The position numbers were made by a program, and so were the translations under genes. Below the pieces are notes generated by a model. The model made no database searches. It had not been told where the DNA came from and worked only from the letters and a program-made list of their open reading frames with translations. A DNA stretch of 64,000 nt, from NCBI GenBank assembly GCA_016187515.1, contig JACPJN010000007.1, positions 4,046-68,045 of the forward strand, written 5' to 3'. The stretch comes from Candidatus Uhrbacteria bacterium. Lineage in GTDB: Bacteria; Patescibacteriota; Patescibacteriia; GWA2-47-26. Each line of letters opens with the position of its first letter. Within the stretch, counting starts at the first letter, position 1. Shown piece after piece: positions 3,017 through 56,258 of the stretch.

Positions 3017-3019
3017 TCT

Positions 3020-20111: not shown

Positions 20112-20127
20112 ATACAACTCAATCACC

Positions 20128-22157: not shown

Positions 22158-22163
22158 GAAAAT

Positions 22164-22395
22164 AGAGGACAGCGTGGAGAGGGGGTTTCTCAAGCGATAA
22201 CACAGCCGCGGGGAGAGCGCGTGTGTAAGCTCAAAGAAACCCAGGAATATCAGTTACTCCACCCCCTTTCCCTGTCCGACCACGGACAAAATCTGGTACT
22301 CATACGAGAGCGTCAGGCAGAGCAAACGCGTGCTACGCTATTGGGTTAAAAATATAGGACGAAAATCTCACGGCCGTGAGATTTTCGTCCTTTTT
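22164..22395 (+). ncRNA. candidate ~230-nt sRNA (unknown family)
   Basis: Bounded by the promoter above and a perfect 34-bp hairpin ggacgaaaatctcacggccgtgagattttcgtcc + TTTTT (22357-22395); long-range complementarity ggacagcgtggagaggggg / ccaccccctttccctgtcc; no convincing ORF. Confidence 0.3.
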
Positions 22396-22488
22396 GTTAA
22401 ACGTGAAAATTGCAAAAACCACTCAATCAAAAACTCAATTCTATTAAAAAACCCGCACCCGAAGGCGCGGAATGCAGGTTGGGTCTCC

Positions 22489-29195: not shown

Positions 29196-32100
29196 TTAGT
29201 TTATCACGACTTGACCTTGTCCCACAATATCCTCAATTGACCGGATCAAGCGCTCTTCCGGATCAATCTGAAAACCCGTCTGAATCGTGCGCTTTACGCC
29301 GTTTTGGCTAAGCACAATGTAGACCGGGGTTGATCCTCGGGTGGACGCAAAAAACGTGCGCAGGGTCTCGAGCGTCGCGCGGTCGTGGTTTTGGAGATGG
29401 ATGAGGAGACGTTTTGATGAGGTATTAGGTACTTGGGTACTTGGGTACCTGGGGTCTTTCATAGTGTTCTTGTCTACTAATACCCTAGGATCCTGAGATC
29501 CTAATTGCCCAGCGCTCTCCGCTGTCAGCACCATCGCCCGCTCGCACACCACCCGTTTCTCCTCGCCGCCTCCGCGTCCCCACACGCATAAAAGCGCCCC
29601 GTCAGACCAGATACCCGGGTTTTCTTTGTACGTTTTCGGAAACGCGACCACCTCGCAGGAACCGGTCAAATCCTGCAGCCGTCCGACGGCCATGCGTTCT
29701 CCGTTTTTGGTGGTACGCGTTTTACATTCCGTAAGCGCTCCGGCCACGCAAAGCGGCGCTCGGTCCGGCACCTCCAGCAGCGCGGAGATCGGCGTCACTT
29801 TGCCGTCCAGCGCCTGTTTAAACTCCTCCAGCGGATGCGCGGTAACGTAAAGTCCAAGCAATTCTTTTTCCCATCGCAACTTTTCTTCACGAGCGGCCGG
29901 CGGAGCGTCTTTGATGCTCAACCGATTCACCTCCGGCAAGCCGGTAAAAAGCGTGCTCTGCTTTGACGGCTCCGCAGTCGCACCACGATGAAACGCCAGC
30001 ATGGCTTCCATATTTTCAAGCATCACCCCGCGATCGCCAAAGCAATCCATCGCGCCGGATTTGATTAAACTCTCCAGCGATTTTTTATTGAGATTCTTAT
30101 GCTGGACGCGCTTAAGAAAATCCTCCAGGTTCTCATAGGCGCCGCCTTGTTCCCGCTCCTCGATCACCGCCTCCACCACGTCCGATCCCAAATTTTTAAT
30201 CGCCAAAAGCCCAAAACGGATGGTCTGATCATCCACATAGGTAAAATCCTTATGACTCTCATTTACATCCGGCGGGAGCACTTTGATTCCCGCTTCTCGC
30301 GCGCCCATGATCACTTCCGCCAGTTTATCCGTATTTCCCGCCTCCGCGGTCAAAATCGCGGTAATAAATTCCGCCGGCCAGTGCGCTTTCATGTACGCGG
30401 TCTGATAAGCCACCATGCCATAGGAAGCGGCATGGGAATTATGCACAATAATATCGTTGGCCACAAAATTATGGGTTTCCGGAACAGTAAGATCATACGT
30501 CATTGCTTCACCCCTAGAAATAATACTTACTACTTCATCCCAATACACATCCGAGTGCGCAAACTCCGTGAGCACTTCCGAATGAAGCGCTTCGGCTATT
30601 ACCGCAACCGTTTCTCGTAAATATCCTTTTTTGGCATCATCATTACATAAAAGACGCTCCGCAATGTTATGAGTTCGCGCAAATCCTTTCAAACTCATCT
30701 CCGTTTTGATAATTTCCGATTTAATAATCGGCAACACTCCCGCTGGAATAATGTCCTTACTTCCGCGCGCGCTCCAAGCCGAGATCGCTCCATTCAACAC
30801 TGGGTGGTGCGCCACAATCTCTGAAAGCGTGGCGCGCTTTTCTCCAATAAGATATTGTCCTACGGTTTGTTCGAATATCTTAATGTTCGTATGTCGTGAT
30901 ACATGAATTGTCCATCCGGTTTTGACCGTATCGCGATACTTAAAATGCTTTTCGTGCACCGTACTAATCATTCCCAGCCGCAACAAAAGATGTTGCATGT
31001 CATAAGCAAGCAATCGCGAACTGGTCGCATAGTACAATTGCCCTTCACCCTCATCGCTATGCACGCAACCGTCCCCTTGCCACATTTTTCCCAAAAGTAC
31101 ACAAAGCTGCTCGCGATTGAGTAAAAATACGAATGTCGGGAACACTTTGCTCGTAGCCTTGCAATCGAGCAATTCCCATTCCTGTGCAAACGAACGCAAC
31201 CCGTTCGGTTGCTTTTGGTTTTGCTTTCCGACATACACGGATACCGCCGACCTTGATCTGTCGATCGTAATGCGCGCATTGCTAAATTGTTTCGCATGCG
31301 ATATAAAATCGGCAATCTCCTCTTCCGCTTTGGAATAATAGTATATTCCGTACGGATGGCAGAAATTTCCCTCAGCCAAAAGATATCCTAACGCCGCGAG
31401 TTTATAATCATCAATTGGATAAGCGCGTTTAGGCAGTGGCGCGTGACGTGCGGTTGCAATACGGTCGCCGTGCTTTAACTCTGCGAGTGTAGCCCAGCTC
31501 CCAAATTTTCTGAAAGGGTGATTTGCCGTTGCTTTTATGCGTAGACCGCGACGGGTAATGACTTCAAATATCGGCTTTACACCGTTTTGTTGTACGGCTC
31601 CTATTGGTCGCTTGTCCAAGGTAAGATCATCCTCAAGGGATAGAAGAGTAATCTTGGAATTGCTTGATCTATACAATTCCTCTACCGTCCTTCGAACGCC
31701 TGACACCGCGTCGTAAATAATAGTGTCTCCCGTAATACATTTGTTAAAACCATACGCCGCAAACGGTTCAATCAATGCCCAGATTTCCTCGGCGCGCGCT
31801 CGCACCAGCCCTTTTTTAACGCAGCCGCTTAAAAATTTCTCGCGCTGGGCCACCATTTCGCGCGGAATTTTTTTACCCATGGCTTTGCGTAATTTATCGG
31901 CTTCTTCCCAAGTATAACCCGCTAGTTCAATGGCGATCATGAGCACGTCGTCCTGATAAACTAAAATACCATAAGTACGCTCCAAAATATTCTGCAGTTG
32001 CGGCACCAAATACTGAATCAGCCGCGGATTATGCTTGCGCTTAATATATTCCGGAATGGACTCCATCGGACCCGGGCGAAAAAGCGCGACCATCGCCATG

Positions 32101-33995
32101 ATGTCGTGAATACTTGAGGGTTTGAGTTCTTTCAAATAGCGGGTCATGCCTGAACCGGACAGCTGAAATACGCCCATGGTATCCCCGCGCGAGAGCATTT
32201 CAAAAGTTTTCTTGTCTTCTGGCGGGAGCTTATCAATATCCACGGACACGCCTTTAGTTTTCTTCACGATCTGTACCGCATCGCCCAAGATGGAAAGATT
32301 GCGGATTCCCAACATATCCATCTTAACTAAGCCCGCGGCCTCCACCGCGTGCATGTCATACTGGGTAATAATATGATCGCCCTGGGCTTCTTTTTGAAGC
32401 GGCGTAAAATCCGTAAGTTTGGTGGGCGCAATGACCATGCCGGCCGCGTGTACCGAAGCGTGGCGCGCGCAACCTTCCACTTTACGCGCCAAATTCAGCA
32501 CGCGTTTCGTATTGGCATCCTCATGGTACATCTTCCCCAGCTCGGGATTTTCCTCCAACGCCCGGTCCACGGTCATGTGAAATCCTTGCGCCCCGGGCGG
32601 GATCATTTTGGAAAGTTTGTCGCCAAAGGAATATGGAAAACCCAGTACGCGCGTGACATCGCGCACGGCCGCACGCGGCAACATGGTCCCAAATGTACAG
32701 ATTTGCGCGACTTTATCGCGCCCGTATTTTTCTCGCACGTATTCAATCACCTCATCGCGGCGATTATCCGCAAAATCCACATCAATATCCGGCGGACTCG
32801 GACGCGACACGGTTAAAAATCGTTCAAATGGCAAACGCAAATCCAGAGGATTGACCGTAGTAATATCAATGAGATAAGACACGAGCGATCCCGCGGCCGA
32901 ACCGCGCGTGGTCACCACAATTCCTTGCGCGCGCGCCCATTTCACATAGTCCGACACAATTAAAAAATAAGTAGAAAAACCGGTTTTTTTGATTACCTCA
33001 AGTTCATACTCAATACGCTGAAGGACAGTCCTTTGGTCGAGTAAAGGACTGTCCTTCTTCAATCCAAACCTCTCCTGCGCCGCTTTCCACACTAACTCTT
33101 CCAAATACTCATGATGCGTCCTTCTCTCTGGTACCGGAAACTGCGGAAACGCCCATTGGTTAAGCGTAAGCTCCAGATTGCAGCGCTCGGCCACCTTTAG
33201 CGTATTTATGATAACTTCCGGATGGTCTTTCCACTGCGCCGCCACTTCCTCTGGAGATTTAAACGAGTGATCCACGCCCGTCATGTTTAACCGGCCTTTG
33301 TCCGTGACAAATTTACCTGTTTGCACGCACACCAGTACATCTTGCGCCTCGCCATCGTCGGCATGCAAATAGTGGCTGTCTACCGTGGCCACCGGCACAA
33401 TACCGAGCTCTTCGCATAATTTAAACATGCCGCGATTGACGGTTTCTTGTTCTGGAATCTCGGGGTGTTTCTGCACCTCGGCGAAAAAATTCTCTTTGCC
33501 AAAAATCTCTTGAAACTCTTGAGCAACGCGTTTTGCTTCATCGAATTGTCCGCGCGCGATCAGCCGCGGAATCTCACCGCGCAAACAACCGGAGAGCGCA
33601 ATAAGCCCTTTGCCATACGCGCGCAGGGCGGCTTTATCAATGCGCGGTTTATAATAATAACCTTCCAGATGCGCGAGCGTGGTCAGCAACATTAAATTCC
33701 GATAGCCCTCCTCATTGCGCGCGAGCAAGGTTAAGTGGTGGTAATCCTTGTCCACGCCCGCGCGCTTTTCTTCTTTTTCTCCGAGTGCCATGTAGGCCTC
33801 CATGCCAACAATCGGCTTGATTTCCTGCCTTCTACATTCTTGATAAAATTCCAACGCGCCATACATCACGCCGTGATCGGTTAAGGCAAGCGCCGGACAC
33901 CCAAACTCTTTCGCCCGCGCCACCAACTCCGGAATTTTCGGAAGACCATCAAGTAAGCTGTAATGGGAGTGGGTATGCAAGTGGACGAAGGGCAT
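29196..33995 (-). CDS. dnaE: DNA polymerase III alpha subunit containing an intein
   Basis: 1599 aa; N-terminal PHP domain MPFVHLHTHSHYSLLDG; polymerase core; the conserved FNK-SHAA motif is interrupted by an intervening sequence. Confidence 0.9.
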   Translation of the reverse strand: MPFVHLHTHSHYSLLDGLPKIPELVARAKEFGCPALALTDHGVMYGALEFYQECRRQEIKPIVGMEAYMALGEKEEKRAGVDKDYHHLTLLARNEEGYRNLMLLTTLAHLEGYYYKPRIDKAALRAYGKGLIALSGCLRGEIPRLIARGQFDEAKRVAQEFQEIFGKENFFAEVQKHPEIPEQETVNRGMFKLCEELGIVPVATVDSHYLHADDGEAQDVLVCVQTGKFVTDKGRLNMTGVDHSFKSPEEVAAQWKDHPEVIINTLKVAERCNLELTLNQWAFPQFPVPERRTHHEYLEELVWKAAQERFGLKKDSPLLDQRTVLQRIEYELEVIKKTGFSTYFLIVSDYVKWARAQGIVVTTRGSAAGSLVSYLIDITTVNPLDLRLPFERFLTVSRPSPPDIDVDFADNRRDEVIEYVREKYGRDKVAQICTFGTMLPRAAVRDVTRVLGFPYSFGDKLSKMIPPGAQGFHMTVDRALEENPELGKMYHEDANTKRVLNLARKVEGCARHASVHAAGMVIAPTKLTDFTPLQKEAQGDHIITQYDMHAVEAAGLVKMDMLGIRNLSILGDAVQIVKKTKGVSVDIDKLPPEDKKTFEMLSRGDTMGVFQLSGSGMTRYLKELKPSSIHDIMAMVALFRPGPMESIPEYIKRKHNPRLIQYLVPQLQNILERTYGILVYQDDVLMIAIELAGYTWEEADKLRKAMGKKIPREMVAQREKFLSGCVKKGLVRARAEEIWALIEPFAAYGFNKCITGDTIIYDAVSGVRRTVEELYRSSNSKITLLSLEDDLTLDKRPIGAVQQNGVKPIFEVITRRGLRIKATANHPFRKFGSWATLAELKHGDRIATARHAPLPKRAYPIDDYKLAALGYLLAEGNFCHPYGIYYYSKAEEEIADFISHAKQFSNARITIDRSRSAVSVYVGKQNQKQPNGLRSFAQEWELLDCKATSKVFPTFVFLLNREQLCVLLGKMWQGDGCVHSDEGEGQLYYATSSRLLAYDMQHLLLRLGMISTVHEKHFKYRDTVKTGWTIHVSRHTNIKIFEQTVGQYLIGEKRATLSEIVAHHPVLNGAISAWSARGSKDIIPAGVLPIIKSEIIKTEMSLKGFARTHNIAERLLCNDDAKKGYLRETVAVIAEALHSEVLTEFAHSDVYWDEVVSIISRGEAMTYDLTVPETHNFVANDIIVHNSHAASYGMVAYQTAYMKAHWPAEFITAILTAEAGNTDKLAEVIMGAREAGIKVLPPDVNESHKDFTYVDDQTIRFGLLAIKNLGSDVVEAVIEEREQGGAYENLEDFLKRVQHKNLNKKSLESLIKSGAMDCFGDRGVMLENMEAMLAFHRGATAEPSKQSTLFTGLPEVNRLSIKDAPPAAREEKLRWEKELLGLYVTAHPLEEFKQALDGKVTPISALLEVPDRAPLCVAGALTECKTRTTKNGERMAVGRLQDLTGSCEVVAFPKTYKENPGIWSDGALLCVWGRGGGEEKRVVCERAMVLTAESAGQLGSQDPRVLVDKNTMKDPRYPSTQVPNTSSKRLLIHLQNHDRATLETLRTFFASTRGSTPVYIVLSQNGVKRTIQTGFQIDPEERLIRSIEDIVGQGQVVIN
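30439..31739 (-). mobile_element. DnaE intein (~434 aa) with LAGLIDADG homing-endonuclease domain
   Basis: Begins CITGDTII right after extein AYGFNK and ends DIIVHN followed by +1 Ser (SHAASYG); LAGLIDADG-like blocks LAALGYLLAEGNF and LLAYDMQHLLLRLGM; coordinates +-1 nt. Confidence 0.8.
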
Positions 33996-34936: not shown

Positions 34937-37447
34937 TTAATCTCGCACCTTAGCATCAAACCTCTCTTTTAGCATGCGAGACAATTTTATGTGCACCTTC
35001 TCCGCTTCTTGCGCCGTCAGCGTTCGCTCGGCCGAGGCATACTGGATATGAAACGCCAGACTACGGTGTCCCTCCGGCACGCCCTTGCCTGCATACTGAT
35101 CAAACAGTTCCACGCCGGCAATGAGCGGATCAAGTTTGGCAATCGCGCCATGAATCACGGCGTACTCTTTTTCTTTGCTCACTACAAAGGCAATGTCACG
35201 CTTGACCGGCGGATACGCCGGAGGCGGCTCATACGCTCGGCCTTGACCAATCAGCGGATAGACCACGCGCATTTCCCACTCTAAAAACGCAACCCGCTGC
35301 TCTATGCCATAAGCCCTAAGCAATTGTGGATGAAGTTCACCCACTACCCCCAGTATATCACGCCCGGATTTTACGAGCAATACGCGAGAGGGGTGGTAAT
35401 GCTTGACCCACGGCGCCTTAATTGACCCGACTTTTTCATATCCAAAATTTGGCAAGGCCAAAACTTCCGCCAAATGTTCGGCCACGCCTTTTGCCGCGTA
35501 AAAATGCGCACCCTCGCGTTCTTCGCGCCCGGCACTCAACACAATGAGCTTTTGTCGTTCGTCGGGTAATTCTCCCGCACGAGGATGATATTCGCTCGAC
35601 AATTCAAACAATTTCAACTCATCCCGCGTTTTTTCATTTTCCGCCACAGCTTTGAGGAGCGAAATTCCCAGCCACGGCCGCATGTGCGCCATCTCGGAGG
35701 TCAAAGGATTGGCAAGCGCCAGCGCGTCGCGGTCCGGATCAAACCCGGCGCGCGCAACACTATCGCGAGCAACAAATGAATAGGTGTAAAGTTCGGTAAA
35801 TCCTGCGCCGCGCAACGCCTCCTTCACTTCGTGTTCGTGCGTAAATTGCACACTTTGTATCTCGAAAGGAAGATCGCCTTGTGGAAGCACACCGGGAATC
35901 CTGTGATATCCATACATCCGCGCGACTTCCTCGGCAATATCCGCAACCCCGTCCGCTTCAACCTCGCGCCAATACGGAAATTTTACGCCCCACTTTTTTG
36001 CGCCTCCCGATACGGAAAACCCAAGCGCGGTTAAATATTTTTTCATTTGCGGCGCCGGAATTTCCACGCCGATTTTCTTCGCCACCTCCACAGGCGCGAC
36101 TTTCACCGTTTTTCCTCCCCTTAAGGTAAGGGGAGGCGAGGAGGGGTTATGCCGATCCACCATCCCCACCACCTTCCCTCCGGCAATCTCGGCGGTCAAC
36201 TCCATCAATCGCGCCGCCGCAAACTCCGGCAACGGCACAGGCAATCCTTTATTAAACCGCACAGAACTCGCCGAGGTAAGCCCAATCTGATGCTCGCCGC
36301 GGCGAATCGTGAGCGCATCAAAATTCGCAATCTCGTACACGATCCGCGTTGTCCCCGCGCGCACCCCGGTTTCTTCTCCGCCCATGATGCCGGCAATCGC
36401 CACTGGCCGCTGGGCATCAGCAATCACTAGAATATTTTCATCAAGTTCGTAGGTATTCCCATCTAATGCTAAAACCTTTTCCCCTTTCTTCCCCATCCGC
36501 ACCACTATTTTTTTCCGTGTCCCATCCGTTTTATTTCCGTGTCTTTCTGTGTTATGAAGACGCTCAGCATCAAAAGCATGACACGGCTGCCCATACTCTA
36601 GTAGTACATAATTCGTGATATCCACGATATTATTTATCGGCCGCACCCCAGAGGCCATAAGCCGCCGCTGTATCCACCACGGCGACGGCCCCACCTTCAC
36701 GCCTTCCATCACCACCGCCATGTACCGCGGACACAACTTTGGCACTTCAACTTTAACGTCCAACCAATCTCCTCCCCTTAGGTTAAGGGGAGGTCGGGAG
36801 GGGTTATGACCAATTTTCAATTTTACATTTTCAATTTTACATTTTACATTGAATATCGCCCCCACCTCGCGCGCCAACCCAACTATGCCCATAGCGTCCG
36901 GACGATTGGTTGTTATTTCCACCTCAAGTACCACATCATCTAATCCAAGTGCTCTAGCCACTGGCACACCCACGCGCGCGCCCGTGGCAGTCAAATCTAA
37001 AATCTCCCGCTCTTTGTGTGGAAACATTTCATATAGCCCAATCTCATTGGCCGCGCAAATCATGCCTTCACTTTTGACGCCACGAATTTCTGTCGGTGTT
37101 AATTCCATTGGTTCACCTTCTCCATGCCAGCGCACTTTTGCTCCCGGCAGAGCTACCGCCACCAACATTCCTTCTTTAATATTCGTTCCCCCACACACAA
37201 TAGTTCGTGGTCGTTCGTCTTTATTGTTCGTGGTCGTTCGTGCTATACGCAGCTTATCGGCATTTGGATGCGGCTCTATTTCCACAATCTTCCCGACTAC
37301 AATCGCCGGATCCAGTCCTACCACCATTGGCCGCATTCGCTCCACGGAAAACGCATGAAGCGACAAGCGCTCCGCCACTTCCTCTGGGCGGGCTTTAAGT
37401 CCTGGCAAAAACTCACGCAGCCAATTATAGGAAACCAATAGGTTCAT
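34937..37447 (-). CDS. pheT: phenylalanyl-tRNA synthetase beta subunit, with multiple in-frame repeat insertions
   Basis: 836 aa; tRNA-binding N-domain, B3/4, B5, FDX-ACB; inserts from REP elements (PPLNLRGG at ~36110-36150; SSPPLTLRGG at ~36770-36808) and tandem repeats (36815-36850, 37195-37250). Confidence 0.9.
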   Translation of the reverse strand: MNLLVSYNWLREFLPGLKARPEEVAERLSLHAFSVERMRPMVVGLDPAIVVGKIVEIEPHPNADKLRIARTTTNNKDERPRTIVCGGTNIKEGMLVAVALPGAKVRWHGEGEPMELTPTEIRGVKSEGMICAANEIGLYEMFPHKEREILDLTATGARVGVPVARALGLDDVVLEVEITTNRPDAMGIVGLAREVGAIFNVKCKIENVKLKIGHNPSRPPLNLRGGDWLDVKVEVPKLCPRYMAVVMEGVKVGPSPWWIQRRLMASGVRPINNIVDITNYVLLEYGQPCHAFDAERLHNTERHGNKTDGTRKKIVVRMGKKGEKVLALDGNTYELDENILVIADAQRPVAIAGIMGGEETGVRAGTTRIVYEIANFDALTIRRGEHQIGLTSASSVRFNKGLPVPLPEFAAARLMELTAEIAGGKVVGMVDRHNPSSPPLTLRGGKTVKVAPVEVAKKIGVEIPAPQMKKYLTALGFSVSGGAKKWGVKFPYWREVEADGVADIAEEVARMYGYHRIPGVLPQGDLPFEIQSVQFTHEHEVKEALRGAGFTELYTYSFVARDSVARAGFDPDRDALALANPLTSEMAHMRPWLGISLLKAVAENEKTRDELKLFELSSEYHPRAGELPDERQKLIVLSAGREEREGAHFYAAKGVAEHLAEVLALPNFGYEKVGSIKAPWVKHYHPSRVLLVKSGRDILGVVGELHPQLLRAYGIEQRVAFLEWEMRVVYPLIGQGRAYEPPPAYPPVKRDIAFVVSKEKEYAVIHGAIAKLDPLIAGVELFDQYAGKGVPEGHRSLAFHIQYASAERTLTAQEAEKVHIKLSRMLKERFDAKVRD

Positions 37448-37812: not shown

Positions 37813-38952
37813 CTAAAATTGTTCCAAAAAATTTAAGTCATTATTATACAACACCCTGATATCATCAATGCGCAAACCCTGCTTCATCATGTAGCTCCGC
37901 TCCACTCCAAACCCAAACGCAAATCCACTCCACACTTTTGGATCAAGTCCGCCTGCTTTTAAAACATTGGGGTGTACCATGCCGGCGCCAGCAAGCTCAA
38001 GCCAGCCGGACTTACAAAGTCTGCACTTCTCCCCTCCCCTTAAGGTAAGGGGAGGTTGGGAGGGGTTATGAACATAACCAGTGCCATGACACACGCCACA
38101 TGATACATCTACTTCAAACGACGGTTCGGTAAATCGAAAGTGAAACGGCCGCAAACGAATTCTACGCTCCGGCCCAAAAAAGACGCGCGCGAAATATTCA
38201 AGCGTTCCCTTCAAATGCGTCACTGCGACATTCCGATCAATGAGGAGTCCTTCAAACTGATGAAACATCGGCACATGCGACACATCTGATTGCCTACGAT
38301 AACACTTAGCCAGGTTGATCATCCGAATCGGCGGCTTGCGTCGTTCCATCTCGCGCACTTGGCCATTGGAAGTATGCGGTGTAAGCACCATTTTTCCAAA
38401 CTTTGGATGCTCAATGTAATTTCCGCGTTGTTCCGCGATATGCTCTAGCGAGACGTTCCGCGTGGTTCCGCGACCTACAAAATAGGTCTCCCACTCATCC
38501 CGCGCTGGATGTCCCTTCGGCATGTTCAACGCCTCAAACGCATAATAATCCCAATCTACCTCCGGATACCGCATCCGATAAAATCCCAACTGCGCGAAAA
38601 TCCGGGTAATCTCCTCAATCGCCTGGGTCGTAATATGCAAATGCCCCAGCGGCGGCCGCGTCCCCGGAAGCGTCACATCCAGTTTCTCTTGCTCCGCCAG
38701 CTTGCCCAGCGCCACACCTTCCAACTCTTTTACGTGTTGTTGTAGTGCTGTCATGATGTACTGCTTTAGTGTATTCAACTCCTGTCCCGCTTTTTTCCGC
38801 TCCTCGCCTTTCATTTCCGCAAGTTCGGAAAATAATCCGGTCATGGTTCCTTTTCTTCCCAAAAATTCAATACGCACAGCCTCAAGCCCGGCCGCGTCAC
38901 GCGCCGCCTCAATCTTCTTTTTCACGATGTTCTCAATTTCCTTAAGGTCCAT
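37813..38952 (-). CDS. pheS: phenylalanyl-tRNA synthetase alpha subunit, with in-frame REP-like and tandem-repeat insertions
   Basis: 379 aa; class II catalytic core; insert HNPSQPPLTLRGGEKCRLC from REP at 38030-38072; gttccgcg tandem repeats at 38400-38470. Confidence 0.9.
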   Translation of the reverse strand: MDLKEIENIVKKKIEAARDAAGLEAVRIEFLGRKGTMTGLFSELAEMKGEERKKAGQELNTLKQYIMTALQQHVKELEGVALGKLAEQEKLDVTLPGTRPPLGHLHITTQAIEEITRIFAQLGFYRMRYPEVDWDYYAFEALNMPKGHPARDEWETYFVGRGTTRNVSLEHIAEQRGNYIEHPKFGKMVLTPHTSNGQVREMERRKPPIRMINLAKCYRRQSDVSHVPMFHQFEGLLIDRNVAVTHLKGTLEYFARVFFGPERRIRLRPFHFRFTEPSFEVDVSCGVCHGTGYVHNPSQPPLTLRGGEKCRLCKSGWLELAGAGMVHPNVLKAGGLDPKVWSGFAFGFGVERSYMMKQGLRIDDIRVLYNNDLNFLEQF

Positions 38953-38964
38953 ACAACAACTTTT

Positions 38965-39005
38965 TCTCCCCCTTAGGCTAAGGGGGAGTTAGAGGGGGTT
39001 ACGAA
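38965..39005. repeat. REP-like palindromic element
   Basis: ctcccccttaggctaagggggagttagagggggttacgaa. Confidence 0.7.
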
Positions 39006-39116
39006 ACTAAATTATACCCTCCCCCACATTCCCTCCATCATACACGATTACACTTGACAAAACAACTCCGCCATGCGACAATACACATACCTGTCAGAAA
39101 ACCACGGAGGAACGCC

Positions 39117-39647
39117 ATGTCTATCCGCACCGTTCTTTTTTCCATAATGCTCGCGCTAGGATGTGGTACAATTTCCCATCCGCAGACCCCCCATCCGCAG
39201 ACCGGAGTCTACCACGCCACCCTGGGCTCGAACGCTGACCATCCCATCTGCGAAGCAGCCCTGCGCCAGTTTGTCGTGCCAGGCGAGGTGACCTTTGTCC
39301 ATTTCTGGGCAAGCTGGTGTACGGCGTGCGCTGTCGTATCCGAACACATACAACAGCGATTCGCAGATCAGATTAGGATTGTATATCTCGACCTTGGGGA
39401 TCCGCGCAATGCCAGCGAGGATATCATGCAACTATGCGGCCATAAAGGACTTCCAATTGATATCGTTTACAGCCGTACTGGCCGGATGATCCTCAACGCC
39501 TCACCCTACAAGATCGTGCGCAACCGCTCAATTGTCCAATCCTACGATCCCCAACAACCGGAGGGGATTATAGAATATATCACTTTCCTCGATGCCGTAG
39601 TGACGAAGCTCCTGAAGCTACCGCCATCTCCCCATCGGCTCAAGTGA
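39117..39647 (+). CDS. thioredoxin-fold lipoprotein (TlpA/ResA-like thiol-disulfide oxidoreductase), cassette A
   Basis: SD GGAGG; MSIRTVLFSIMLALGC lipobox signal peptide; WCTAC active site (FVHFWASWCTACAV); GC-rich. Confidence 0.7.
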   Translation: MSIRTVLFSIMLALGCGTISHPQTPHPQTGVYHATLGSNADHPICEAALRQFVVPGEVTFVHFWASWCTACAVVSEHIQQRFADQIRIVYLDLGDPRNASEDIMQLCGHKGLPIDIVYSRTGRMILNASPYKIVRNRSIVQSYDPQQPEGIIEYITFLDAVVTKLLKLPPSPHRLK

Positions 39648-39797
39648 CCAACTCGCGCGGACTCTCACCGGTTCGCACCTTTTTTTCTATGGGACTATTG
39701 CCGGGACTGTTGCCGAATGTGCTCTCGTAGCGAAAAGCGCGCCCGCCCCTTCGACATCCAACTCCGGCTATGCTTCCTCTGGCGGCCATTTTCTCCC

Positions 39798-39843
39798 GCC
39801 CCGCCCGCGCGCTTCCTGCGCCGGCCGGGGTTTCTTTTTTATT
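39798..39843 (+). terminator. cassette terminator module (copy A)
   Basis: ccccgcccgcgcgcttcctgcgccggccggggtttctttttt; near-identical copies at 40893-40938 and 41744-41788, each followed by att(a/g)acgcaccaccat. Confidence 0.65.
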
Positions 39844-39995
39844 AACGCACCACCATCTCGATCGCAGCCAGAATTGATTCCCGTTTTTTAAAGTCGCCTC
39901 GCTTGACGTATTTCAATGCTCCGTACAATTCTTCTAAATTTTTCTGGAGACCACTGATTTTCCTGGAAACCGCCGTCGACAACTACTGTCCATTC

Positions 39996-40031
39996 TGTCC
40001 CAAAATCTCACGGCCGTGAGATTTTGGGACA
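39996..40031. repeat. 36-bp perfect palindrome TGTCCCAAAATCTCACGGCCGTGAGATTTTGGGACA (copy 1)
   Basis: Exact inverted repeat followed by aatttttgttttg; identical copies at 40991, 41807, 42915, 46695. Confidence 0.85.
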
Positions 40032-40089
40032 ATTTTTGTTTTGCGATCCTCGTCAAGTGGATAACCCCCCCTTTTTTTCTACACCCCCC

Positions 40090-40118
40090 TTGACAATCAA
40101 ACAAAATCATGCTATTAT
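40090..40118 (+). promoter_or_regulatory. cassette B promoter TTGACA-N17-TATTAT
   Basis: TTGACA 40090-40095, TATTAT 40113-40118; embedded in a ~110-bp module (39996-40125) almost identical to 40991-41125. Confidence 0.65.
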
Positions 40119-40194
40119 AGCAGGATGCCTTTTGGCGTCCTGTGTGGCATTTCGCCGCGCGGCATGAACTTTCCATCAGCAAAAAGAGGACATC

Positions 40195-40851
40195 ATGCTC
40201 GTTCATTGGTTGTTCAAGGACGTCTTCATGATGGTGGCAATCGGTTTCATCGCGGTGGTCGCGCTCACCATCATCCTACATGCGGTGATGCGACCCATCC
40301 TGCGGAAGCTCACACTTGGCGACTACGAGAAATTCCTCCACAAGCCGAGCAACTATGTGGTGCAGGAGTATCCCTCTGCGTCCCACGGTGGCGGCGCGCT
40401 CAACAGGGCTGCAGTGAGACGACATGCCGAACGTTGGGCTAAGCTCGGCAACGAATGGGGACTCGCCATGGTGGCCTGCGTGGCGATCATCGCTGCAGTG
40501 ATGATCTTCGGCATCCACACGGCGAGCCAGAATTCCAATCCCCTGGAGGTGATCACGCCATACCTCAACTGGATTGGTGTGTGGTTCTTCCTTGCCATCG
40601 CCTGCCTGGTGCCGCACAAGATCTGTCTGACCATCGCGCGGTGGTACGAAAACGGCGCCGAGAACGGGAGGTTGCCGCCCCTGCCCGGCGCCCCCGAGAA
40701 CTCGCTGGCTCGGATCTCAATATCGGTCAAGAACGATCCCGATCCTCTCCCCTATGCGATCAAGGACATCAACCAGTTCGTCGCGATGGTGGTGGAGGGA
40801 CCACAATTCTCGTGGTGGCGGTACCAGCTTCGTCGGATGTTTTGTCGGTAG
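40195..40851 (+). CDS. membrane protein (hypothetical, ~3 TM), cassette B
   Basis: 218 aa; SD AAAGAGG; TM helices; no known domain. Confidence 0.5.
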   Translation: MLVHWLFKDVFMMVAIGFIAVVALTIILHAVMRPILRKLTLGDYEKFLHKPSNYVVQEYPSASHGGGALNRAAVRRHAERWAKLGNEWGLAMVACVAIIAAVMIFGIHTASQNSNPLEVITPYLNWIGVWFFLAIACLVPHKICLTIARWYENGAENGRLPPLPGAPENSLARISISVKNDPDPLPYAIKDINQFVAMVVEGPQFSWWRYQLRRMFCR

Positions 40852-40892
40852 TGGACCGTACCTACATGTGTCCCACCGGCGAAACTCTCTGT

Positions 40893-40938
40893 TCCGCCCC
40901 GCCCGCGCGCTTCCTGCGCCGGCCGGGGCTTCTTTTTT
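40893..40938 (+). terminator. cassette terminator module (copy B)
   Basis: ccgccccgcccgcgcgcttcctgcgccggccggggcttctttttt. Confidence 0.65.
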
Positions 40939-40990
40939 ATGTGCAGGTTGTGTGTATATGAGCTTTTCCCATTTGCCACCCGTTTGCCAC

Positions 40991-41026
40991 CCGCATCCGA
41001 TTGTCCCAAAATCTCACGGCCGTGAG
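40991..41026. repeat. 36-bp perfect palindrome (copy 2)
   Basis: Identical to copy 1. Confidence 0.85.
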
Positions 41027-41092
41027 ATTTTGGGACAATTTTTGTTTTGCGATCCTCGTCAAGTGGATAACTCCCCCCTTTCTACATCCCTC

Positions 41093-41121
41093 TTGACAAT
41101 CAAGCGATTATATGCCATTAT
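41093..41121 (+). promoter_or_regulatory. cassette C promoter TTGACA-N17-CATTAT
   Basis: TTGACA 41093-41098; -10 41116-41121. Confidence 0.6.
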
Positions 41122-41162
41122 TAAACTAGGCAACCCCGCCTGAAAGTGAAAGTGAGGATACC

Positions 41163-41723
41163 ATGCAGCGAACCTTTGTTCTTTTCGTCTTTCTTGGCGC
41201 CGCCTGCGGCGGCAAGGCAGGCCCGACGCGTCCCGAGCTCGGCAGTACCGAATGCTATGCTGCCCAAGCGCTCCCTCAAATCCGGGGCGATCGGCCTCTG
41301 CACTGCGCGTTCCAGGATCAGCTGCCTGCCGAGGTGTCTCACCTCGTCGCGATGGCACGCCTGAGGATTGAGTGCGATCCGGAAAAAGTGATGGCCGCGG
41401 TGTCGTTTAACCACCACTTGCCGGAAGAAGAACCGAAATTCATTGAGGTGGCATGCAATGATGACTACCCAACCGAGCTCGTCTGCGGATGGACTACCAA
41501 CTTCCGCATCACCGCCCACGACTTCGGCGAAGGAACAACTCGGGTAATCATCCGAAGCGACTGCCCTTTGCCCGAATACGGAGGCGTCCGCTGCAGCGAT
41601 CAGATTCCCCCGCATGCAATATTCACCTCAACAGAAAGACATTGCGAGACGGGTGACGCGCTGCTTATCAATCCGGTCAGCTCCAACCAGGAAATTACGG
41701 TCTGGGCCGACCCGATCGACTGA
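41163..41723 (+). CDS. Cys-rich secreted/lipoprotein-like protein (hypothetical), cassette C
   Basis: 186 aa; signal peptide MQRTFVLFVFLGAAC; at least 9 Cys; SD GAGGA. Confidence 0.5.
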   Translation: MQRTFVLFVFLGAACGGKAGPTRPELGSTECYAAQALPQIRGDRPLHCAFQDQLPAEVSHLVAMARLRIECDPEKVMAAVSFNHHLPEEEPKFIEVACNDDYPTELVCGWTTNFRITAHDFGEGTTRVIIRSDCPLPEYGGVRCSDQIPPHAIFTSTERHCETGDALLINPVSSNQEITVWADPID

Positions 41724-41743
41724 TCGCTCCACCAACCCGTTCC

Positions 41744-41788
41744 CCCCCCGCCCGCGCGCGCCCACGCGCCGGCCGGGGTTTCTTTTTT
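41744..41788 (+). terminator. cassette terminator module (copy C)
   Basis: cccccccgcccgcgcgcgcccacgcgccggccggggtttctttttt. Confidence 0.65.
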
Positions 41789-41806
41789 ATTGACGCACCA
41801 CCATTC

Positions 41807-41842
41807 TGTCCCAAAATCTCACGGCCGTGAGATTTTGGGACA
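41807..41842. repeat. 36-bp perfect palindrome (copy 3)
   Basis: Identical sequence; between convergent cassette C and PaaX-like gene. Confidence 0.85.
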
Positions 41843-41941
41843 ACCTTTGTTTCTAGATCCTTTTCGAGATCCTCTTTCTTCCGCCCCTTTTTGTACCATC
41901 TAGTGCTCGATAATACTCAACCAACGCTTGATACTTTGGTA

Positions 41942-42649
41942 CTATTTTGACTTTCTCCTTTTCTGCTTCACTTTAAAATATGCACGCGGTGATAAATCAT
42001 AAATCTCACCATCTTCCTTCTGTCGCTGCATCTGCCGCCAAACCCGTATTACGCGCGGGCTGCATTTTTTACAGTCGGCTTCAATCAGCGCGTAATATCG
42101 GTGCAAGCCAAGGTACTTTAATAAGCCGTGTAGCGCTGGTTCGGGATTGTACTTTGTAACCCACACGGAAAACTGCCACATTTGAAATCCGCTTGCTTTA
42201 AGAAGTTTCCGTAAGTGATCGCGATGCTTTCGCAACCGTTCTGGAATATCAAAAATTACCACCCGCCAGGCGCGATCCCACTTTTGTTTGCGCTGATCTT
42301 CCATGTGCTGTATAAATCGTATCCGCAGTATTTCGTACTTACCCTTGGCAGTCAAACGATACAACTGCTCCTCTCCTTCTTGCACTAACTCGATGTAATG
42401 TTCCTGCTTTAAATAGTGGATACGCCGCATCAGCCGCCTATATTCTCGTTTTCTGCGCGCGCGTTCACGTTCTATATAGGCCACTGGTCCAAAGCCGCCT
42501 AAACTCCAGCGTACATGCGATGGCACGTGGATACCTCCCCCCTTTAGATTTGTAGCCTGAAGTTCGAGCAATGCGATTTGTAACTCTTGCAGTTGTAATC
42601 GAGTACTCATAGATATGAGACCGCTGAACAATTGATTATTCGTGTTCAT
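41942..42649 (-). CDS. PaaX-family transcriptional regulator (winged HTH + PaaX_C-like domain)
   Basis: 235 aa; YRLTAKGKYEIL resembles PaaX wHTH FYSLTxKG; WDRAWRVVIFDIPERLRKHRDHLRKLLKASGFQMWQFSVWV matches PaaX_C WDGxW...LxxxGFGxLxxGVW; family match is inference from motif recall, no search run. Confidence 0.55.
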   Translation of the reverse strand: MNTNNQLFSGLISMSTRLQLQELQIALLELQATNLKGGGIHVPSHVRWSLGGFGPVAYIERERARRKREYRRLMRRIHYLKQEHYIELVQEGEEQLYRLTAKGKYEILRIRFIQHMEDQRKQKWDRAWRVVIFDIPERLRKHRDHLRKLLKASGFQMWQFSVWVTKYNPEPALHGLLKYLGLHRYYALIEADCKKCSPRVIRVWRQMQRQKEDGEIYDLSPRAYFKVKQKRRKSK

Positions 42650-42914
42650 TCGTAAGGCCGCCTGGCCAGGGCAGCGCAGGAAACCGGCGATTCCGGCGGC
42701 CGTCTATTCGCCTGCCCCGCACCAAGCCGCAGTCGGCGCCTCTTTAATACCCTAGGGATAGCCGCAGGCGGCATCCGTGGCTCGCCCAGCCATTCACCAC
42801 TGCCTTTCTTCGGGCTTTGGTGCTGGGGTGGATATTCGTGTGAACCTGCGCAGGTGTTAGTTCTTCAACATTCTCAGATATGCGCTTCAAAGGGACATTC
42901 AGCATCCGGCTTTT

Positions 42915-42950
42915 TGTCCCAAAATCTCACGGCCGTGAGATTTTGGGACA
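42915..42950. repeat. 36-bp perfect palindrome (copy 4)
   Basis: Identical; upstream (gene sense) of PaaX-like gene, beyond a ~260-nt GC-rich leader. Confidence 0.85.
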
Positions 42951-43044
42951 AAAGCGCACGGTTACGTTTTTGTAATTTTATGTACAATTTTTTTCGAAAT
43001 CACTCCGCGAAATCACTCCGGAGATTTCAATTCTACGATGCATA

Positions 43045-44328: not shown

Positions 44329-45153
44329 CTACAGCCTTGCGGCTTTAAGATTAATGGACATTCCGAGCCATTTTTCCGCCAGTTCCTGAAATTTCGGCGT
44401 TTTTTTGCTGACATAGAATTCGTGTTTCGGAGCACTCATAACTCCCCTAACCCCTCTTACCTTAAGAGGGGAATCCGATTGATCGTTCCTCCCCTTAAGG
44501 TAAGGGGAGGCAGGAGGGGTTATGAACTGTTGAACTTCACGCGCCACCGTCTCCGCCGAATCCACGAGCTGCACACGATTGCCCACAATATCAGCAATCA
44601 CGCCTTTAAGCCAGGGGTAATGCGTACACCCTAAAATAAGCGTATCAACCTGCGCGCGCTGAAACGGCGCAAGATACTGCTCCGCCACTTCATAGGTCGT
44701 CGGATGCACCAAGCGCCCAGCTTCAACCAGCGGAACGAACAAGGGACATTCCCGGGCATTAATGCCGCGGCACCATTTTTGATACGCGCCGCTTTGCACA
44801 GTGGTCCGCGTGCCAATTACTCCAATCCGGCCATTATGTGTCCGGCGCAGCGCTTCGCGCACGGCCGGAGTAATCACTTCAAAAATCGGCACGCTGGGAA
44901 ATTCCTTGCGCAACGCTAATCCCGACACCGCGGAGGCCGTATTGCAGCCCACCACAATCATTTGCGCTTTTTTCTTTAGTAAAAACTTCGCGTTTTGCAG
45001 CGCGTAGCCCGCCACGGTCTCCGGCGGCTTATTGCCGTACGGCGTTCGCGCCGTATCGCCAAAATAAATAATTTTCTCGCGGGGTAGCGCCGCCATTACG
45101 GCTTTCGCCACGGTCAATCCGCCGAGTCCTGAATCGAAAATTCCGATTGTCAT
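44329..45153 (-). CDS. murI: glutamate racemase with in-frame REP-like insertions
   Basis: IGIFDSGLGGLTVAKAV, GCNTAS, GCTHYP motifs; inserts DSPLKVRG(VRG) encoded by REP copies at 44440-44528. Confidence 0.85.
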   Translation of the reverse strand: MTIGIFDSGLGGLTVAKAVMAALPREKIIYFGDTARTPYGNKPPETVAGYALQNAKFLLKKKAQMIVVGCNTASAVSGLALRKEFPSVPIFEVITPAVREALRRTHNGRIGVIGTRTTVQSGAYQKWCRGINARECPLFVPLVEAGRLVHPTTYEVAEQYLAPFQRAQVDTLILGCTHYPWLKGVIADIVGNRVQLVDSAETVAREVQQFITPPASPYLKGRNDQSDSPLKVRGVRGVMSAPKHEFYVSKKTPKFQELAEKWLGMSINLKAARL

Positions 45154-46694: not shown

Positions 46695-46730
46695 TGTCCC
46701 AAAATCTCACGGCCGTGAGATTTTGGGACA
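46695..46730. repeat. 36-bp perfect palindrome (copy 5), with extended imperfect arms 46683-46740
   Basis: Between convergent lemA and 46914..47525 gene. Confidence 0.85.
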
Positions 46731-46913
46731 TAGGCGGTTCGCGCACCTACCCATTACTAAACGTCCCGCATTGGGCGCGATCGAGCCAAATACGGGACGA
46801 CTTGTGTATACCGGTGCATACCGGAAAGGCAGCGGTTAGGATAAAAAACAAGCCCGGGCGGAAGAAAACGAATCTTCCACTCGGGCCGAGGAACAGGAAC
46901 AGGGGCCGACTGA

Positions 46914-47525
46914 CTACTGCGCCGCGGCGACCGGCGCGGTCAGGTCGCGATGCTGGACGTGATACAGGCGCCAGAGCGTAAGGATCGTGAGCACTCCTTC
47001 GACGACGACAACCACTCCCCACACCGTCCTACCCAGCATCAAAATACCAAAGAGCGTAACCGCCCCCACTCCGAAGATCGCAATCGCCCACCCGTACGGT
47101 ACACCCAACAACGCATCTGCGGAGGGGGCGAGGACGAGGGCGAAGACGAAGGCGACAACAACGAAGACGTAGATGGCGGTACCGATGGCACCGACGGTGT
47201 CGACGGCGGCGATGGTGGCGGTGGTGGTGGCGGTGGTTTCGAGGGCGAGGGCGATGGTGGCGGCGAAGATGGCGACGATGGTGGTGGCGGTGGTGGCGAA
47301 GATGGCTGCGGCGGCGCGGAAGGCGACAACGACGACGGCGAAGGCGGTGGCGATGATGGCGGAGGCGGCGGTGGCCTCCTCCTGACTCGCATTTGCCAGA
47401 AGAGCGATGTGGTACGCTCCTGCCGCTACCAGGAGCCCGCTGATTGTGAAAAGAACGATTTTCTTCATCGTTATACCCTGCTTTCTTTTGTTTTGGGTTT
47501 GGGAACGATAATCCTTATATACCAC
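46914..47525 (-). CDS. low-complexity Ala/Thr/Val-rich polytopic membrane protein (hypothetical)
   Basis: Signal/TM MKKIVLFTISGLLVAAGAY; body encoded by (GGY/GCC)n simple-sequence DNA 47160-47400; TTGACA-N17-TATATA promoter just upstream (47516-47544, minus strand); other frames also open so frame choice rests on promoter and N-terminal signal. Confidence 0.4.
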   Translation of the reverse strand: MVYKDYRSQTQNKRKQGITMKKIVLFTISGLLVAAGAYHIALLANASQEEATAASAIIATAFAVVVVAFRAAAAIFATTATTIVAIFAATIALALETTATTTATIAAVDTVGAIGTAIYVFVVVAFVFALVLAPSADALLGVPYGWAIAIFGVGAVTLFGILMLGRTVWGVVVVVEGVLTILTLWRLYHVQHRDLTAPVAAAQ

Positions 47526-55985: not shown

Positions 55986-56057
55986 GCCCCTGTAGTTCAA
56001 TGGATCGAATGCAAGATTGCGGATCTTGTGATCCAGGTTCGATTCCTGGCGGGGGCA
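55986..56057 (+). tRNA. tRNA-Arg (anticodon GCG), no encoded CCA
   Basis: 7-bp acceptor gcccctg/cgggggc with one U.G pair; anticodon stem caaga/tcttg, loop ttGCGga; T-arm ccagg-ttcgatt-cctgg; acceptor extended by tgttccaaacttt / agagtttggaaca. Confidence 0.6.
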
Positions 56058-56258
56058 GAGTTTGGAACAGCATGTCCCGATCGCGATCGGGATGATCTAG
56101 GTTCTGCGCCAAAGGCGCATCCGCCTCAGGCGGAGATTCCTGGCGGGGGCAGAGTTTGGAACGGCATGTCCCGATCGCGATCGGGATGATCTAGGTTCTG
56201 CGCCAAAGGCGCATCCGCCTCAGGCGGAGATTCCTGGCGGGGGCAGAGTTTGGAACAG
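56058..56258 (+). repeat. tandem 94-bp direct repeats (2 units + partial) each ending in the last 17 nt of the tRNA
   Basis: gattcctggcgggggca at 56041, 56135, 56229 (period 94); unit contains palindrome cccgatcgcgatcggg and two short hairpins. Confidence 0.8.

Follow-up and report, generated by a model that had tools for sequence, protein, structure and literature searches.

A 64,000-nucleotide stretch of a Candidatus Uhrbacteria genome (assembly GCA_016187515.1, contig JACPJN010000007.1, positions 4,046 to 68,045 of the forward strand; called here the window, with positions counted from its first letter) was analysed for a long perfect palindrome, P, and for the short chain of genes that it punctuates, which closes with the gene of a putative DNA-binding regulator at 41942-42610 (minus strand). 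The window is ordinary chromosome. The locus is surrounded by dnaE (with an intein), pheT, pheS, rseP, murI, a HAD hydrolase gene, lemA and an M48 peptidase gene, and gyrB, ribosomal protein genes, thyA, folA, recG and others lie farther out. No integrase, transposase, Cas1 or other recombinase was found among the 44 window open reading frames (ORFs) scanned, in agreement with an initial annotation made from the letters alone; no CRISPR array was present within the 64 kb, and paa genes were found neither among the 44 ORFs nor among 114 neighbours of relatives of the regulator gene.

P (TGTCCCAAAATCTCACGGCCGTGAGATTTTGGGACA) is palindromic over all of its 36 bp, for which the chance expectation is none. 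Five perfect copies were counted in the window, four of these inside 3 kb: P1 at 39996-40031, P2 at 41002-41037, P3 at 41807-41842 and P4 at 42915-42950. These four were already recorded in the initial annotation. P extends beyond the array, with a fifth copy, P5 (46695-46730, with the convergent lemA gene on one side and a GC-rich membrane-protein gene on the other), and two variants farther off. P3 lies downstream of both gene 3 and the regulator gene, and P4, the arms of which reach 21 nt, lies upstream of the regulator gene. The variant at 22357-22390 (GGACGAAAATCTCACGGCCGTGAGATTTTCGTCC) has the inner 24 nt of P and altered outer arms in which complementarity is retained, with an A-run before it and a T-run after it. 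At 19318-19347, a perfect 30-bp palindrome with a P-like core (GTCAAATTCTCACGATCGTGAGAATTTGAC) is situated within the coding region of a miaA-like gene (19179-20126, minus strand; named from its translation and not by family search), near the 3' end of that gene. Exact P and its 24-nt core had no match in the genome-contig or metagenome-contig collections, and an Rfam search over the region gave only chance microRNA-like hairpin matches on P. Because P3 and P1 are identical at 36/36 positions while their adjacent flank is 73% identical, and P4 and P5 have P as their sole shared sequence, P is kept as a unit, base for base.

The variant at 22357-22390 belongs to a stretch, 22131-22400, that may be a small RNA gene. 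In it a promoter, TTGACA-N17-TATGAT, is found just after a cation-diffusion-transporter-like gene (again named from its translation), and is followed by about 215 nt of non-coding-looking DNA which ends at the variant and has no Rfam match.

Three plus-strand genes precede the regulator gene. Gene 1 (39117-39647) encodes a thioredoxin-like lipoprotein with the lipobox LALGC and the motif WCTAC, and its matches to Thioredoxin, DsbE and StoA models are weak, below the curated cut-offs. It is preceded by a promoter-like site, TTGACA-N17-GACAAT (39054-39082, plus strand), without a palindrome or shared module, and followed by its own terminator-like hairpin and T-run (39657-39685, plus strand; hairpin at 39657-39676). 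Gene 2 (40195-40851, locus tag HYW17_03120) encodes 218 amino acids with three hydrophobic segments, and gene 3 (41163-41723, HYW17_03125) encodes a 186-amino-acid lipoprotein with a lipobox and 9 Cys; the WCTAC motif, the three membrane segments and the 9 Cys are as first described. The three were compared by BLASTP as possible diverged paralogs, a possibility that was rejected when no similarity was seen among them. GC content at third codon positions (GC3) has a window mean of 0.575 (sd 0.081), so that the proposal of GC-richer cargo is upheld for gene 2 (0.78) and gene 3 (0.67), and fails for gene 1 (0.60), which is ordinary.

Orthologs of gene 2 were found in the loci L089 (81% identity) and L090 (52%). 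In L090 the gene 2 homolog runs straight into a lipobox and a Cys-rich domain, and the pairing of a membrane protein with a following Cys-rich lipoprotein may for this reason be old. Similarity between gene 3 and the L090 Cys-rich tail was not detected; gene 3 is an orphan, its sole database match being itself.

Two further units resembling those of genes 2 and 3 were observed at 8898-9437 and 46695-47471. Both hold small membrane-protein genes (GC3 0.79 and 0.80, respectively) with a GC-rich terminator ending in a T-run and then a CG-centred palindrome, at 9404-9437 (GGATCTATTATAAGCGATCGCTTATAATAGCTCC) in the former, and at 46757-46800 together with P5 in the latter. Weak similarity (E 0.003) was seen between the membrane protein adjoining P5 and the product of the gene that precedes P in L093. 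All of the window's three highest-GC3 genes have a palindrome within 300 nt of their stop codon; this top-three pattern is post hoc, and when all genes adjoining palindromes were counted the association of GC3 with palindromes was weak (Mann-Whitney p = 0.08).

Shared modules around genes 2 and 3

P1 and P2 were found to be parts of larger duplicated modules. P with 44 nt of right flank is 98% identical between 39996-40075 and 41002-41081, and the next 43 nt are 79% identical. The flank and promoter of gene 2 occupy 40032-40118 (plus strand), with the -35 element at 40090-40095 and the -10 element at 40113-40118; the promoter, TTGACA-N17-TATTAT (40090-40118), matches 11/12 consensus positions. 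The copy now driving gene 3 is at 41038-41121 (plus strand; -35 at 41093-41098, -10 at 41116-41121), where TTGACA-N17-CATTAT (41093-41121) matches 10/12. The 5' untranslated region (UTR) of gene 2 (40119-40194, plus strand) holds a conserved stem-loop, AGGATGCCTTTTGGCGTCCT. The initial annotation had built all three genes from the same parts, which is true of the modules of genes 2 and 3; gene 1 has neither P nor the shared promoter, and has a terminator of its own.

Three related terminators follow the genes on the plus strand: T1 (39796-39842; -25.2 kcal/mol, with a U-run), T2 (40894-40940) and a diverged copy, T3 (41744-41790). All fold into strong GC-rich hairpins of -25 to -28 kcal/mol, each followed by the U-run UUUCUUUUUUAU. 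They had been called near-identical; this was borne out for T1 and T2 (98% identity), whereas T3 is 70% identical ungapped and about 91% over 64 nt when gapped, and T1 lies 150 nt past the stop codon of gene 1. The motif att(a/g)acgcaccaccat, reported after each terminator, was found after T1 and T3 only, T2 being without it. It represents the 3' end of what is left of a minus-strand ORF, 46 codons between T1 and P1 (39842-39982), with the C-terminal residues ILAAIEMVVR, ending in KRESILAAIEMVVR before the stop codon; after T3 the remnant is mostly deleted and its last 16 nt are left.

The homology among the copies is mosaic. In the terminators copies 1 and 2 match and copy 3 differs, in the linker from terminator to palindrome copies 1 and 3 are alike and copy 2 differs, and in the right flank copies 1 and 2 match and copy 3 is similar. 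CCATTC and some of the right flank are common to P1 and P3, and a left flank is common to P1 and P5; homology runs 3 to about 90 nt past P, its length varying by copy. Ragged and variable edges of this kind are expected from repeated duplication or gene conversion around a long palindrome and not from site-specific cassette insertion. The ortholog of gene 2 in L089 has the same -35/-10 promoter, 5'UTR stem-loop and terminator (the promoter region being conserved from about 40076) and is without P; the promoter and the terminator T2 are therefore gene 2's own. T1 and the module before gene 3 are intragenomic copies made after the lineages split, which fits their identity of 95-98% as against the divergence of the ortholog.

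Several further repeats were noted beside these modules. In L089, a hairpin repeat unlike P (GGATTCCCGC..GCGGGAATGACA) is present on both sides of the gene 2 ortholog, at 1-26 and 919-979 of that sequence, with stems that vary and stay complementary (CCCGC/GCGGG and CCCGG/CCGGG). A 22-nt part of the P-flank module, CAAGTGGATAACCCCCCCTTTT (40054-40075 and 41060-41081), recurs with 91% identity at 42524-42545 within the coding region of the regulator, antisense to the codons for KGGGIHVP. Elsewhere in the window, a pair of 58-nt terminators (2960-3017 and 4093-4150, 1133 nt apart) is 100% identical; each follows a tiny ORF, one encoding MCSLTCTT and the other the 28 amino acids MRTFFFGLALVLTMLTAPNVAHAFVIMF, and together they enclose a PIN-domain gene with a small upstream antitoxin-like ORF. 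From this identical pair, copying of small regulatory modules seems to be common in the genome.

The initial annotation had offered cassette shuffling as an alternative, and in its developed form this is a reading that we regard as unlikely. P would be a recombination or attachment site, like attC, bounding mobile units of promoter, ORF, terminator and P, with the stretch from P1 to P4 as a cassette array; the winged-helix/Cas2-like protein would be its site-recognition part, or a new recombinase or nickase acting at the CGATCG centre. Such a system would suit the spacing of four P copies 0.8-1.1 kb apart with one gene in each interval, the orphan status of gene 3, and the other, genome-specific hairpin repeat on both sides of the L089 ortholog of gene 2. 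It would also suit the GC3 ranking of the window, in which the top three genes, and four of the top six, encode small membrane or exported proteins; in these four units (8898-9437, gene 2, gene 3 and 47471-46695) a GC-rich terminator comes after the gene and a CG-centred palindrome 16-150 nt beyond it. Integron cassettes with their attC sites, and clusters of attC sites that lack an integrase (CALINs), are likewise tandem one-gene units, each ending in a near-identical palindromic repeat, with unrelated, partly orphan and compositionally atypical cargo. However, attC sites are imperfect palindromes of 57-141 nt with extrahelical bases and R and L boxes, whereas P is a perfect 36 bp without such bases or boxes, and the homology runs past it. 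Integron cassettes are mostly promoterless and driven from Pc, whereas a near-consensus promoter and a strong terminator accompany both gene 2 and gene 3, and there is no IntI at the locus, the neighbours of which are pheS, pheT, dnaE, rseP, murI, the HAD hydrolase gene and lemA. With a promoter, 5'UTR and terminator native to gene 2, shared DNA of varying length past P where site-specific recombination predicts sharp constant boundaries, and no integrase, transposase or Cas1 in the scanned ORFs, cassette shuffling was left unsupported by the locus itself.

A parallel in layout is offered by the erp genes of Borrelia. There, unrelated genes for small lipoproteins are driven by a near-identical promoter/operator module (the upstream box UHB) that recombination has spread. 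The likeness goes no further than analogy, since the Borrelia modules are plasmid-borne and neither the organism nor its proteins and sequences are related.

The regulator and its family

The ORF of the regulator extends from 41942 to 42649 on the minus strand and, as first reported, is bracketed by P3 and P4. The start is most likely M14 (42610), as in homologs and in the 222-amino-acid call of NCBI; the product is 100% identical to a Candidatus Uhrbacteria protein from a metagenome-assembled genome, encoded on a 318-kb contig and labelled 'CRISPR-associated endonuclease Cas2'. Between P4 and this start lies a GC-rich leader of 304 nt (42611-42914, minus strand) that is not present in relatives, the site of which is 10-160 nt from the start codon. 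The leader contained no promoter-like site and no Rfam match, folded in an ordinary manner (z = +0.28), and gave no significant similarity to the other sequences compared, with weak tblastx matches only.

Domain content was assessed with profiles and with a predicted structure. Pfam PaaX_M (PF20803) was matched at E 2e-19 (69.9 bits, cutoff 24) and Pfam Cas2 (PF09827) just above its cutoff (27.2, cutoff 23.8). The PaaX N-terminal Pfam family was not listed at E<=1, PaaX_C (PF08223) was not found, and the PaaX equivalog TIGR02277 scored 35.5 bits against a cutoff of 264.55 over profile positions 43-139 only. The assignment to the PaaX family made in the initial annotation thus holds for the middle domain and not for the remainder. 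TIGR01573 (Cas2) scored 34.8 against a cutoff of 24.5, which explains the NCBI name. When a profile of 23 relatives was searched against PDB chains, Cas2 was matched, as was the recognition helix and wing of AspA (E 0.002, about 45 residues; motif YLKxxHYIExxxEGEExLYRLTxKGK). An AlphaFold model had a predicted local distance difference test score (pLDDT) of 81 and a predicted template-modelling score (pTM) of 0.49; Foldseek placed Cas2 structures best for its C-terminal half (E about 5e-3, which is weak; target-normalised TM up to 0.67) and E. coli PaaX (8a39) at rank 23 (E 0.085). The Cas2-like part covers residues ~113-180, and the protein ends about 40 residues after it; longer and more distant relatives (P0034, P0038-41) do carry PF08223. 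FD(I/V)PE, Q.S.W and LTxKG, the last of these a motif of the wing, do not vary across 32 diverse members, and only the close Uhrbacteria-type subfamily has a CxxCS motif. PaaX_M/Cas2 and a winged helix were the only domain matches, with no Y1/HUH transposase. By these profile matches the protein would combine a PadR/AspA-like winged helix with a PaaX-middle/Cas2-like domain, and it is neither a true PaaX nor a Cas2.

Comparison with known proteins was made on the same basis. The regulator shares with Cas2 the ferredoxin-like fold and the hallmark motifs FDIPE and Q.S.W, but Cas2 is a stand-alone protein of about 90-110 amino acids encoded beside cas1 and an array, whereas the regulator has 222 and a putative DNA-binding N-terminal half, and the 36-bp repeats at its locus, spaced at 0.8-1.1 kb, have genes between them instead of spacers. 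The centromere-binding protein AspA of the Sulfolobus plasmid pNOB8, which is PadR-like, recognises a palindrome immediately before its own gene, and spreads. Its recognition helix and wing are similar; AspA differs in having no Cas2-like domain and in being plasmid-borne with ParA and ParB, while the regulator family is chromosomal. PaaX is the repressor of phenylacetate (paa) catabolism in E. coli and Pseudomonas. According to a review (PMC9493321), the E. coli protein recognises the 39-bp dyad TGATTC-N27-GAATCA and acts as a repressor of its own promoter. PaaX likewise has a Cas2-like middle domain preceded by a winged helix, and P, written as TGTCCC-N24-GGGACA, is at 36 bp close in length to the PaaX operator and flanks the regulator's own gene. 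The differences from PaaX are that the regulator has a CxxCS motif in place of the CoA-ligand-binding domain PaaX_C, no match to the PaaX N-terminal model and no paa genes in the scanned ORFs, and that P is palindromic over all 36 bp, has a conserved CG-rich centre and is found on both sides of the gene. A regulator of the PaaX type that acts on a long dyad, and through it on its own gene, is what these likenesses suggest.

The family, which is one of the candidate phyla radiation (CPR), comprises 5,357 clusters at 50% identity (E <= 1e-3), mostly of 175-200 amino acids, and its members have public labels of 'Cas2' or 'PaaX'; no relatives were found in the viral contig, phage or plasmid collections. 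For comparison, 75 non-redundant regulator loci were assembled, mostly by a metagenome scan with the family profile, and 72 could be evaluated. All close relatives retrieved have their own palindrome on both sides of the gene. In L005, with a 76% identical regulator and the same rseP and murI neighbours, P with one central base changed is present on both sides, one site ending 10 nt before the ATG and the other beginning 43 nt after the stop codon. On both sides of their genes, L093 (81% identical) has GACCAAAATCTCACGATCGTGAGATTTTGATC, L091 (70%) the palindrome TTTCTCACGGCCGTGAGAAA, L092 (67%) the palindrome ATTTACAATTACTCACGGCCGTGAGTAATTGTAAAT, and L008 (65%), L001 (64%) and L006 (57%) still other palindromes. 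The upstream and downstream flanks share a repeat in 48/72 evaluable loci, and nearly all of these contain a ACGATCGT- or CGGCCG-type centre.

The sites are lineage-specific dyads of 30-50 bp in which the centre (CGATCG/CGGCCG) is most conserved across the family and the arms are variable, arm identity between loci climbing from 0.37 to 0.88 with protein identity. Median distances are 39 nt from the end of the upstream site to the ATG, and 18 nt from the stop codon to the beginning of the downstream site. Strict CG-centred long palindromes were counted at 0.76 per kb beside the gene and at 0.005 per kb in the other 414 kb, an enrichment of about 150-fold. TTGACA was considered as a regular site component and rejected, being present in only 2/42 strict palindromes, although several imperfect sites contain it. 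No description of this family-wide site-gene-site layout was found in the searchable literature (PaaX/Cas2, winged helix with palindromes, CPR Cas2).

The palindrome at 46757-46800 (ACGTCCCGCATTGGGCGCGATCGAGCCAAATACGGGACGA), 27 nt from P5, is of a different specificity class, matching both of the sites that flank the regulator of L014 (L014/L019 lineage) with 96% identity over 25 nt. For an L014-type palindrome to stand beside P5, the genome must either hold a second paralog at another place or have imported the site along with the adjacent gene. A genome with two paralogs does seem to occur, in Ga0155387, where the regulators of L015 and L016 are 66% identical and have related sites.

Three close relatives have redox-type neighbours, with DoxX-like and VKOR genes in L091, DoxX in L008 and a Cys-rich lipoprotein gene in L092. 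A thiol-redox neighbourhood for the family as a whole was rejected, since the 114 neighbours are mostly housekeeping genes. The thiol-redox regulon first proposed is suggestive for four loci and in view of the subfamily-specific CxxCS motif, and finds no redox theme in the wider family to extend it. In a distant subgroup (35-39% identity; L053, L059, L063, L077 and others) a divergent small MerR/HTH_17-type gene was observed, accounting for 10/114 neighbours, and alaS often follows.

Function of the palindrome

We conclude that P is probably a dyad-symmetric DNA site to which the protein encoded at 41942-42610 (minus strand) is the cognate partner. This is the best reading because the palindromic centre is unneeded for an RNA loop, the five copies are strictly identical, and the sites are linked to, and co-vary with, one protein family. 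The operator role given to the palindromes in the initial annotation gains strong comparative support in the same way: orthologs and distant relatives in other CPR genomes are bracketed by their own co-varying palindromes, and the length of P is near that of the PaaX operator.

As RNA, every copy of P forms a hairpin, the stem of which is 16 bp long (-26.8 kcal/mol), and the T-run ATTTTTGTTTTG comes after P1 and P2. P might on these grounds be a generic hairpin, that is a bidirectional terminator or a repetitive extragenic palindromic (REP)-like element, unrelated to the protein, with the modules as ordinary parts of paralogous small genes. The variant at 22357, with compensatory changes in its outer arms, an A-run before and a T-run after, is in keeping with this, as is the richness of the genome in dispersed repeats and duplicated terminators, such as the 58-nt pair at 2960 and 4093. 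Yet the T-run after P1 and P2 is part of the duplicated flank, that of P3 is weak, P4 and P5 have none on either strand, and family-wide a T-run follows 1/22 downstream sites; the initial annotation had named generic terminators or REP hairpins as the finding that would speak against its operators, and these T-run counts are not those of such elements. Furthermore, a strong GC-rich terminator already stands upstream of P in each unit, the centre of P need not be palindromic for an RNA loop, the copies are the same at 36/36 positions with no compensatory drift, and a generic hairpin cannot account for the ~150-fold association and co-variation with one protein family. We hold this explanation to be highly improbable and already largely refuted.

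The sites might instead be centromere-like or nucleoid-organising, with a protein that bridges or coats DNA and with secondary effects on transcription. The AspA profile match takes in the recognition helix and the wing. Perfect copies number at least five and, with the two variants of the inner core, are distributed across 27 kb; several sit between convergent genes and serve no promoter there. Throughout the family the gene has an identical site on either side. Set against this are the weakness of the AspA match (E 0.002 over ~45 residues), the presence in most relatives of just the two flanking sites within +/-6 kb, and the finding of no ParA- or ParB-like partner among the immediate neighbours of the family genes; the possibility is considered very unlikely.

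The family also bears on P as an attachment site for mobile cassettes. Flanking copies that share asymmetries, a conserved centre with variable arms as in recombinase core sites, the invariance of FD(I/V)PE and Q.S.W in the Cas2-like domain, and the palindrome of L014-lineage type adjoining P5 could all be expected of such sites. FDIPE is, however, also typical of the non-catalytic middle domain of PaaX, and we count this against the cassettes. Arrays are moreover atypical, since in the 414 kb around relatives palindromes are found almost only at the regulator gene; the L005 regulator (76% identity) keeps its rseP and murI neighbours, and the family is not found in the viral, phage and plasmid collections.

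On the reading of P as the cognate site of the regulator, the following course of events is proposed. The ancestral unit would be site-gene-site, with one site some 40 nt ahead of the start codon and its identical partner some 20 nt beyond the stop codon, represented here by P4 as the ancestral upstream site and P3 as the ancestral downstream site. Because of this layout the protein most likely controls its own gene. Dimerisation is presumably mediated by the PaaX-middle (Cas2-fold) domain, and binding at the upstream site would act by promoter occlusion or as a roadblock; the two sites may be bridged into a loop of about 0.7-1.1 kb, or the downstream site may insulate the gene from its neighbours. 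In this Uhrbacteria genome P would then have been copied recently, with variable lengths of flank, to neighbouring units: P with ~28-90 nt of right flank, including the native promoter of gene 2, to the position before gene 3, and the native terminator of gene 2 to T1, with T3 as an older copy. The resulting chain would be P1-gene2-P2-gene3-P3-regulator-P4, in which genes 2 and 3 are bracketed by sites as the regulator gene is, and these two genes are probably co-regulated with it. The cassette-like appearance is best explained as a by-product of duplication or gene conversion around a long palindrome, and not as integron-like capture. We infer the binding of P by the protein, the sign and mechanism of regulation and the mechanism of copying, whereas the repeats, the domain content, the family-wide site-gene-site arrangement with its co-variation, and the native origin of the gene 2 promoter and terminator were shown.

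A number of observations weigh against a cognate operator. The centres of P1 and P2 lie some 110 nt ahead of where genes 2 and 3 are predicted to start, a distance too great for simple occlusion, and P5 and the palindromes at 9404 and 46757 are at the 3' ends of genes, between convergent genes. The co-variation of arms with protein is confounded by shared ancestry. Flanking copies share even asymmetric positions (L005, L009, L014), which points to concerted evolution or duplication rather than to independent selection for binding. In the predicted model the N-terminal half appears as mostly long helices with no clear winged helix (pTM 0.49). Finally, a standard operator model leaves unexplained the second identical site just past the stop codon in most family members, the full 36-bp perfection including the centre, and the position of the centre as the most conserved part in the family.

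A system of another kind, in which the protein reads the variable arms and nicks, pairs or recombines DNA at the CGATCG/CGGCCG centre, was considered in this connection and appears quite unlikely. It would be an unrecognised CPR system for site-specific DNA transactions, by which P-bounded one-gene units are captured, duplicated or exchanged without a classical integrase or transposase, and it would cover both the regulator gene and the GC-rich exported-protein genes, as a Cas2-fold analogue of REP-RAYT or integron-attC systems. REPIN-RAYT systems resemble the present one in that a gene is flanked by the palindrome which its product presumably recognises and that extra copies lie elsewhere in the genome. 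They differ in that the regulator is not a Y1/HUH transposase; within the 64 kb covered, copies of P number five, and in the flanks of relatives essentially the two beside the gene were seen.

Other repeats in the window and implications

Additional repeated elements were recorded in the window. A short inverted-repeat element at 3021-3187 has the ends AAGGGACTGTTGCCGAATAT and ATATTCGGCAACAGTCCCTT; a single end copy of it lies at 39703-39735, between gene 1 and T1, and another in L001 (4144-4173), a different Uhrbacteria contig. A dispersed repeat of about 45 nt (CCCCTTAAGGTAAGGGGAGG..GGGAGGGGTTA) is present in at least 10 copies, among them 38963-39007, 36768-36812, 38030-38074, 18101-18145, 44485-44529, 8706-8801 and 9525-9565, and inside pheT, pheS, gatB and murI it reads as PPLTLRGG-, PPLNVRGG- and SPLKVRG-like peptide insertions. 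A 94-nt unit that contains the palindrome TCCCGATCGCGATCGGGA occurs 2.3 times over at 56041-56258 (98% identity), starting within the 3' end of a tRNA gene (55986-56057); an integrative element may have left this footprint. In the intergenic DNA around the tmRNA gene, between 60200 and 63200, an AT-rich octamer, TTATTGAG / AATAACTC, recurs many times, both in tandem and scattered. The intein of dnaE (29196-33995) carries a LAGLIDADG homing-endonuclease domain.

Very little is known of transcriptional regulation in bacteria of the candidate phyla (Patescibacteria). Through the present comparison an abundant family of small proteins is tied to a recognisable candidate DNA element, 30-50 bp long, with a CGATCG-type centre and placed on both sides of the gene, and a recurrent mis-annotation, that of false 'orphan Cas2' genes, can be corrected. 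The protein and its site would be a ready pair for biochemistry in organisms that cannot be cultured, and regulons may be predicted by searching each genome for its own palindrome. For this Uhrbacteria genome, the prediction is that two small exported proteins share the control of the regulator, and perhaps a wider set of GC-rich membrane-protein and lipoprotein genes as well. Should the site-gene-site arrangement prove instead to be a DNA-transaction system, it would represent a new class of mobile or recombination element.

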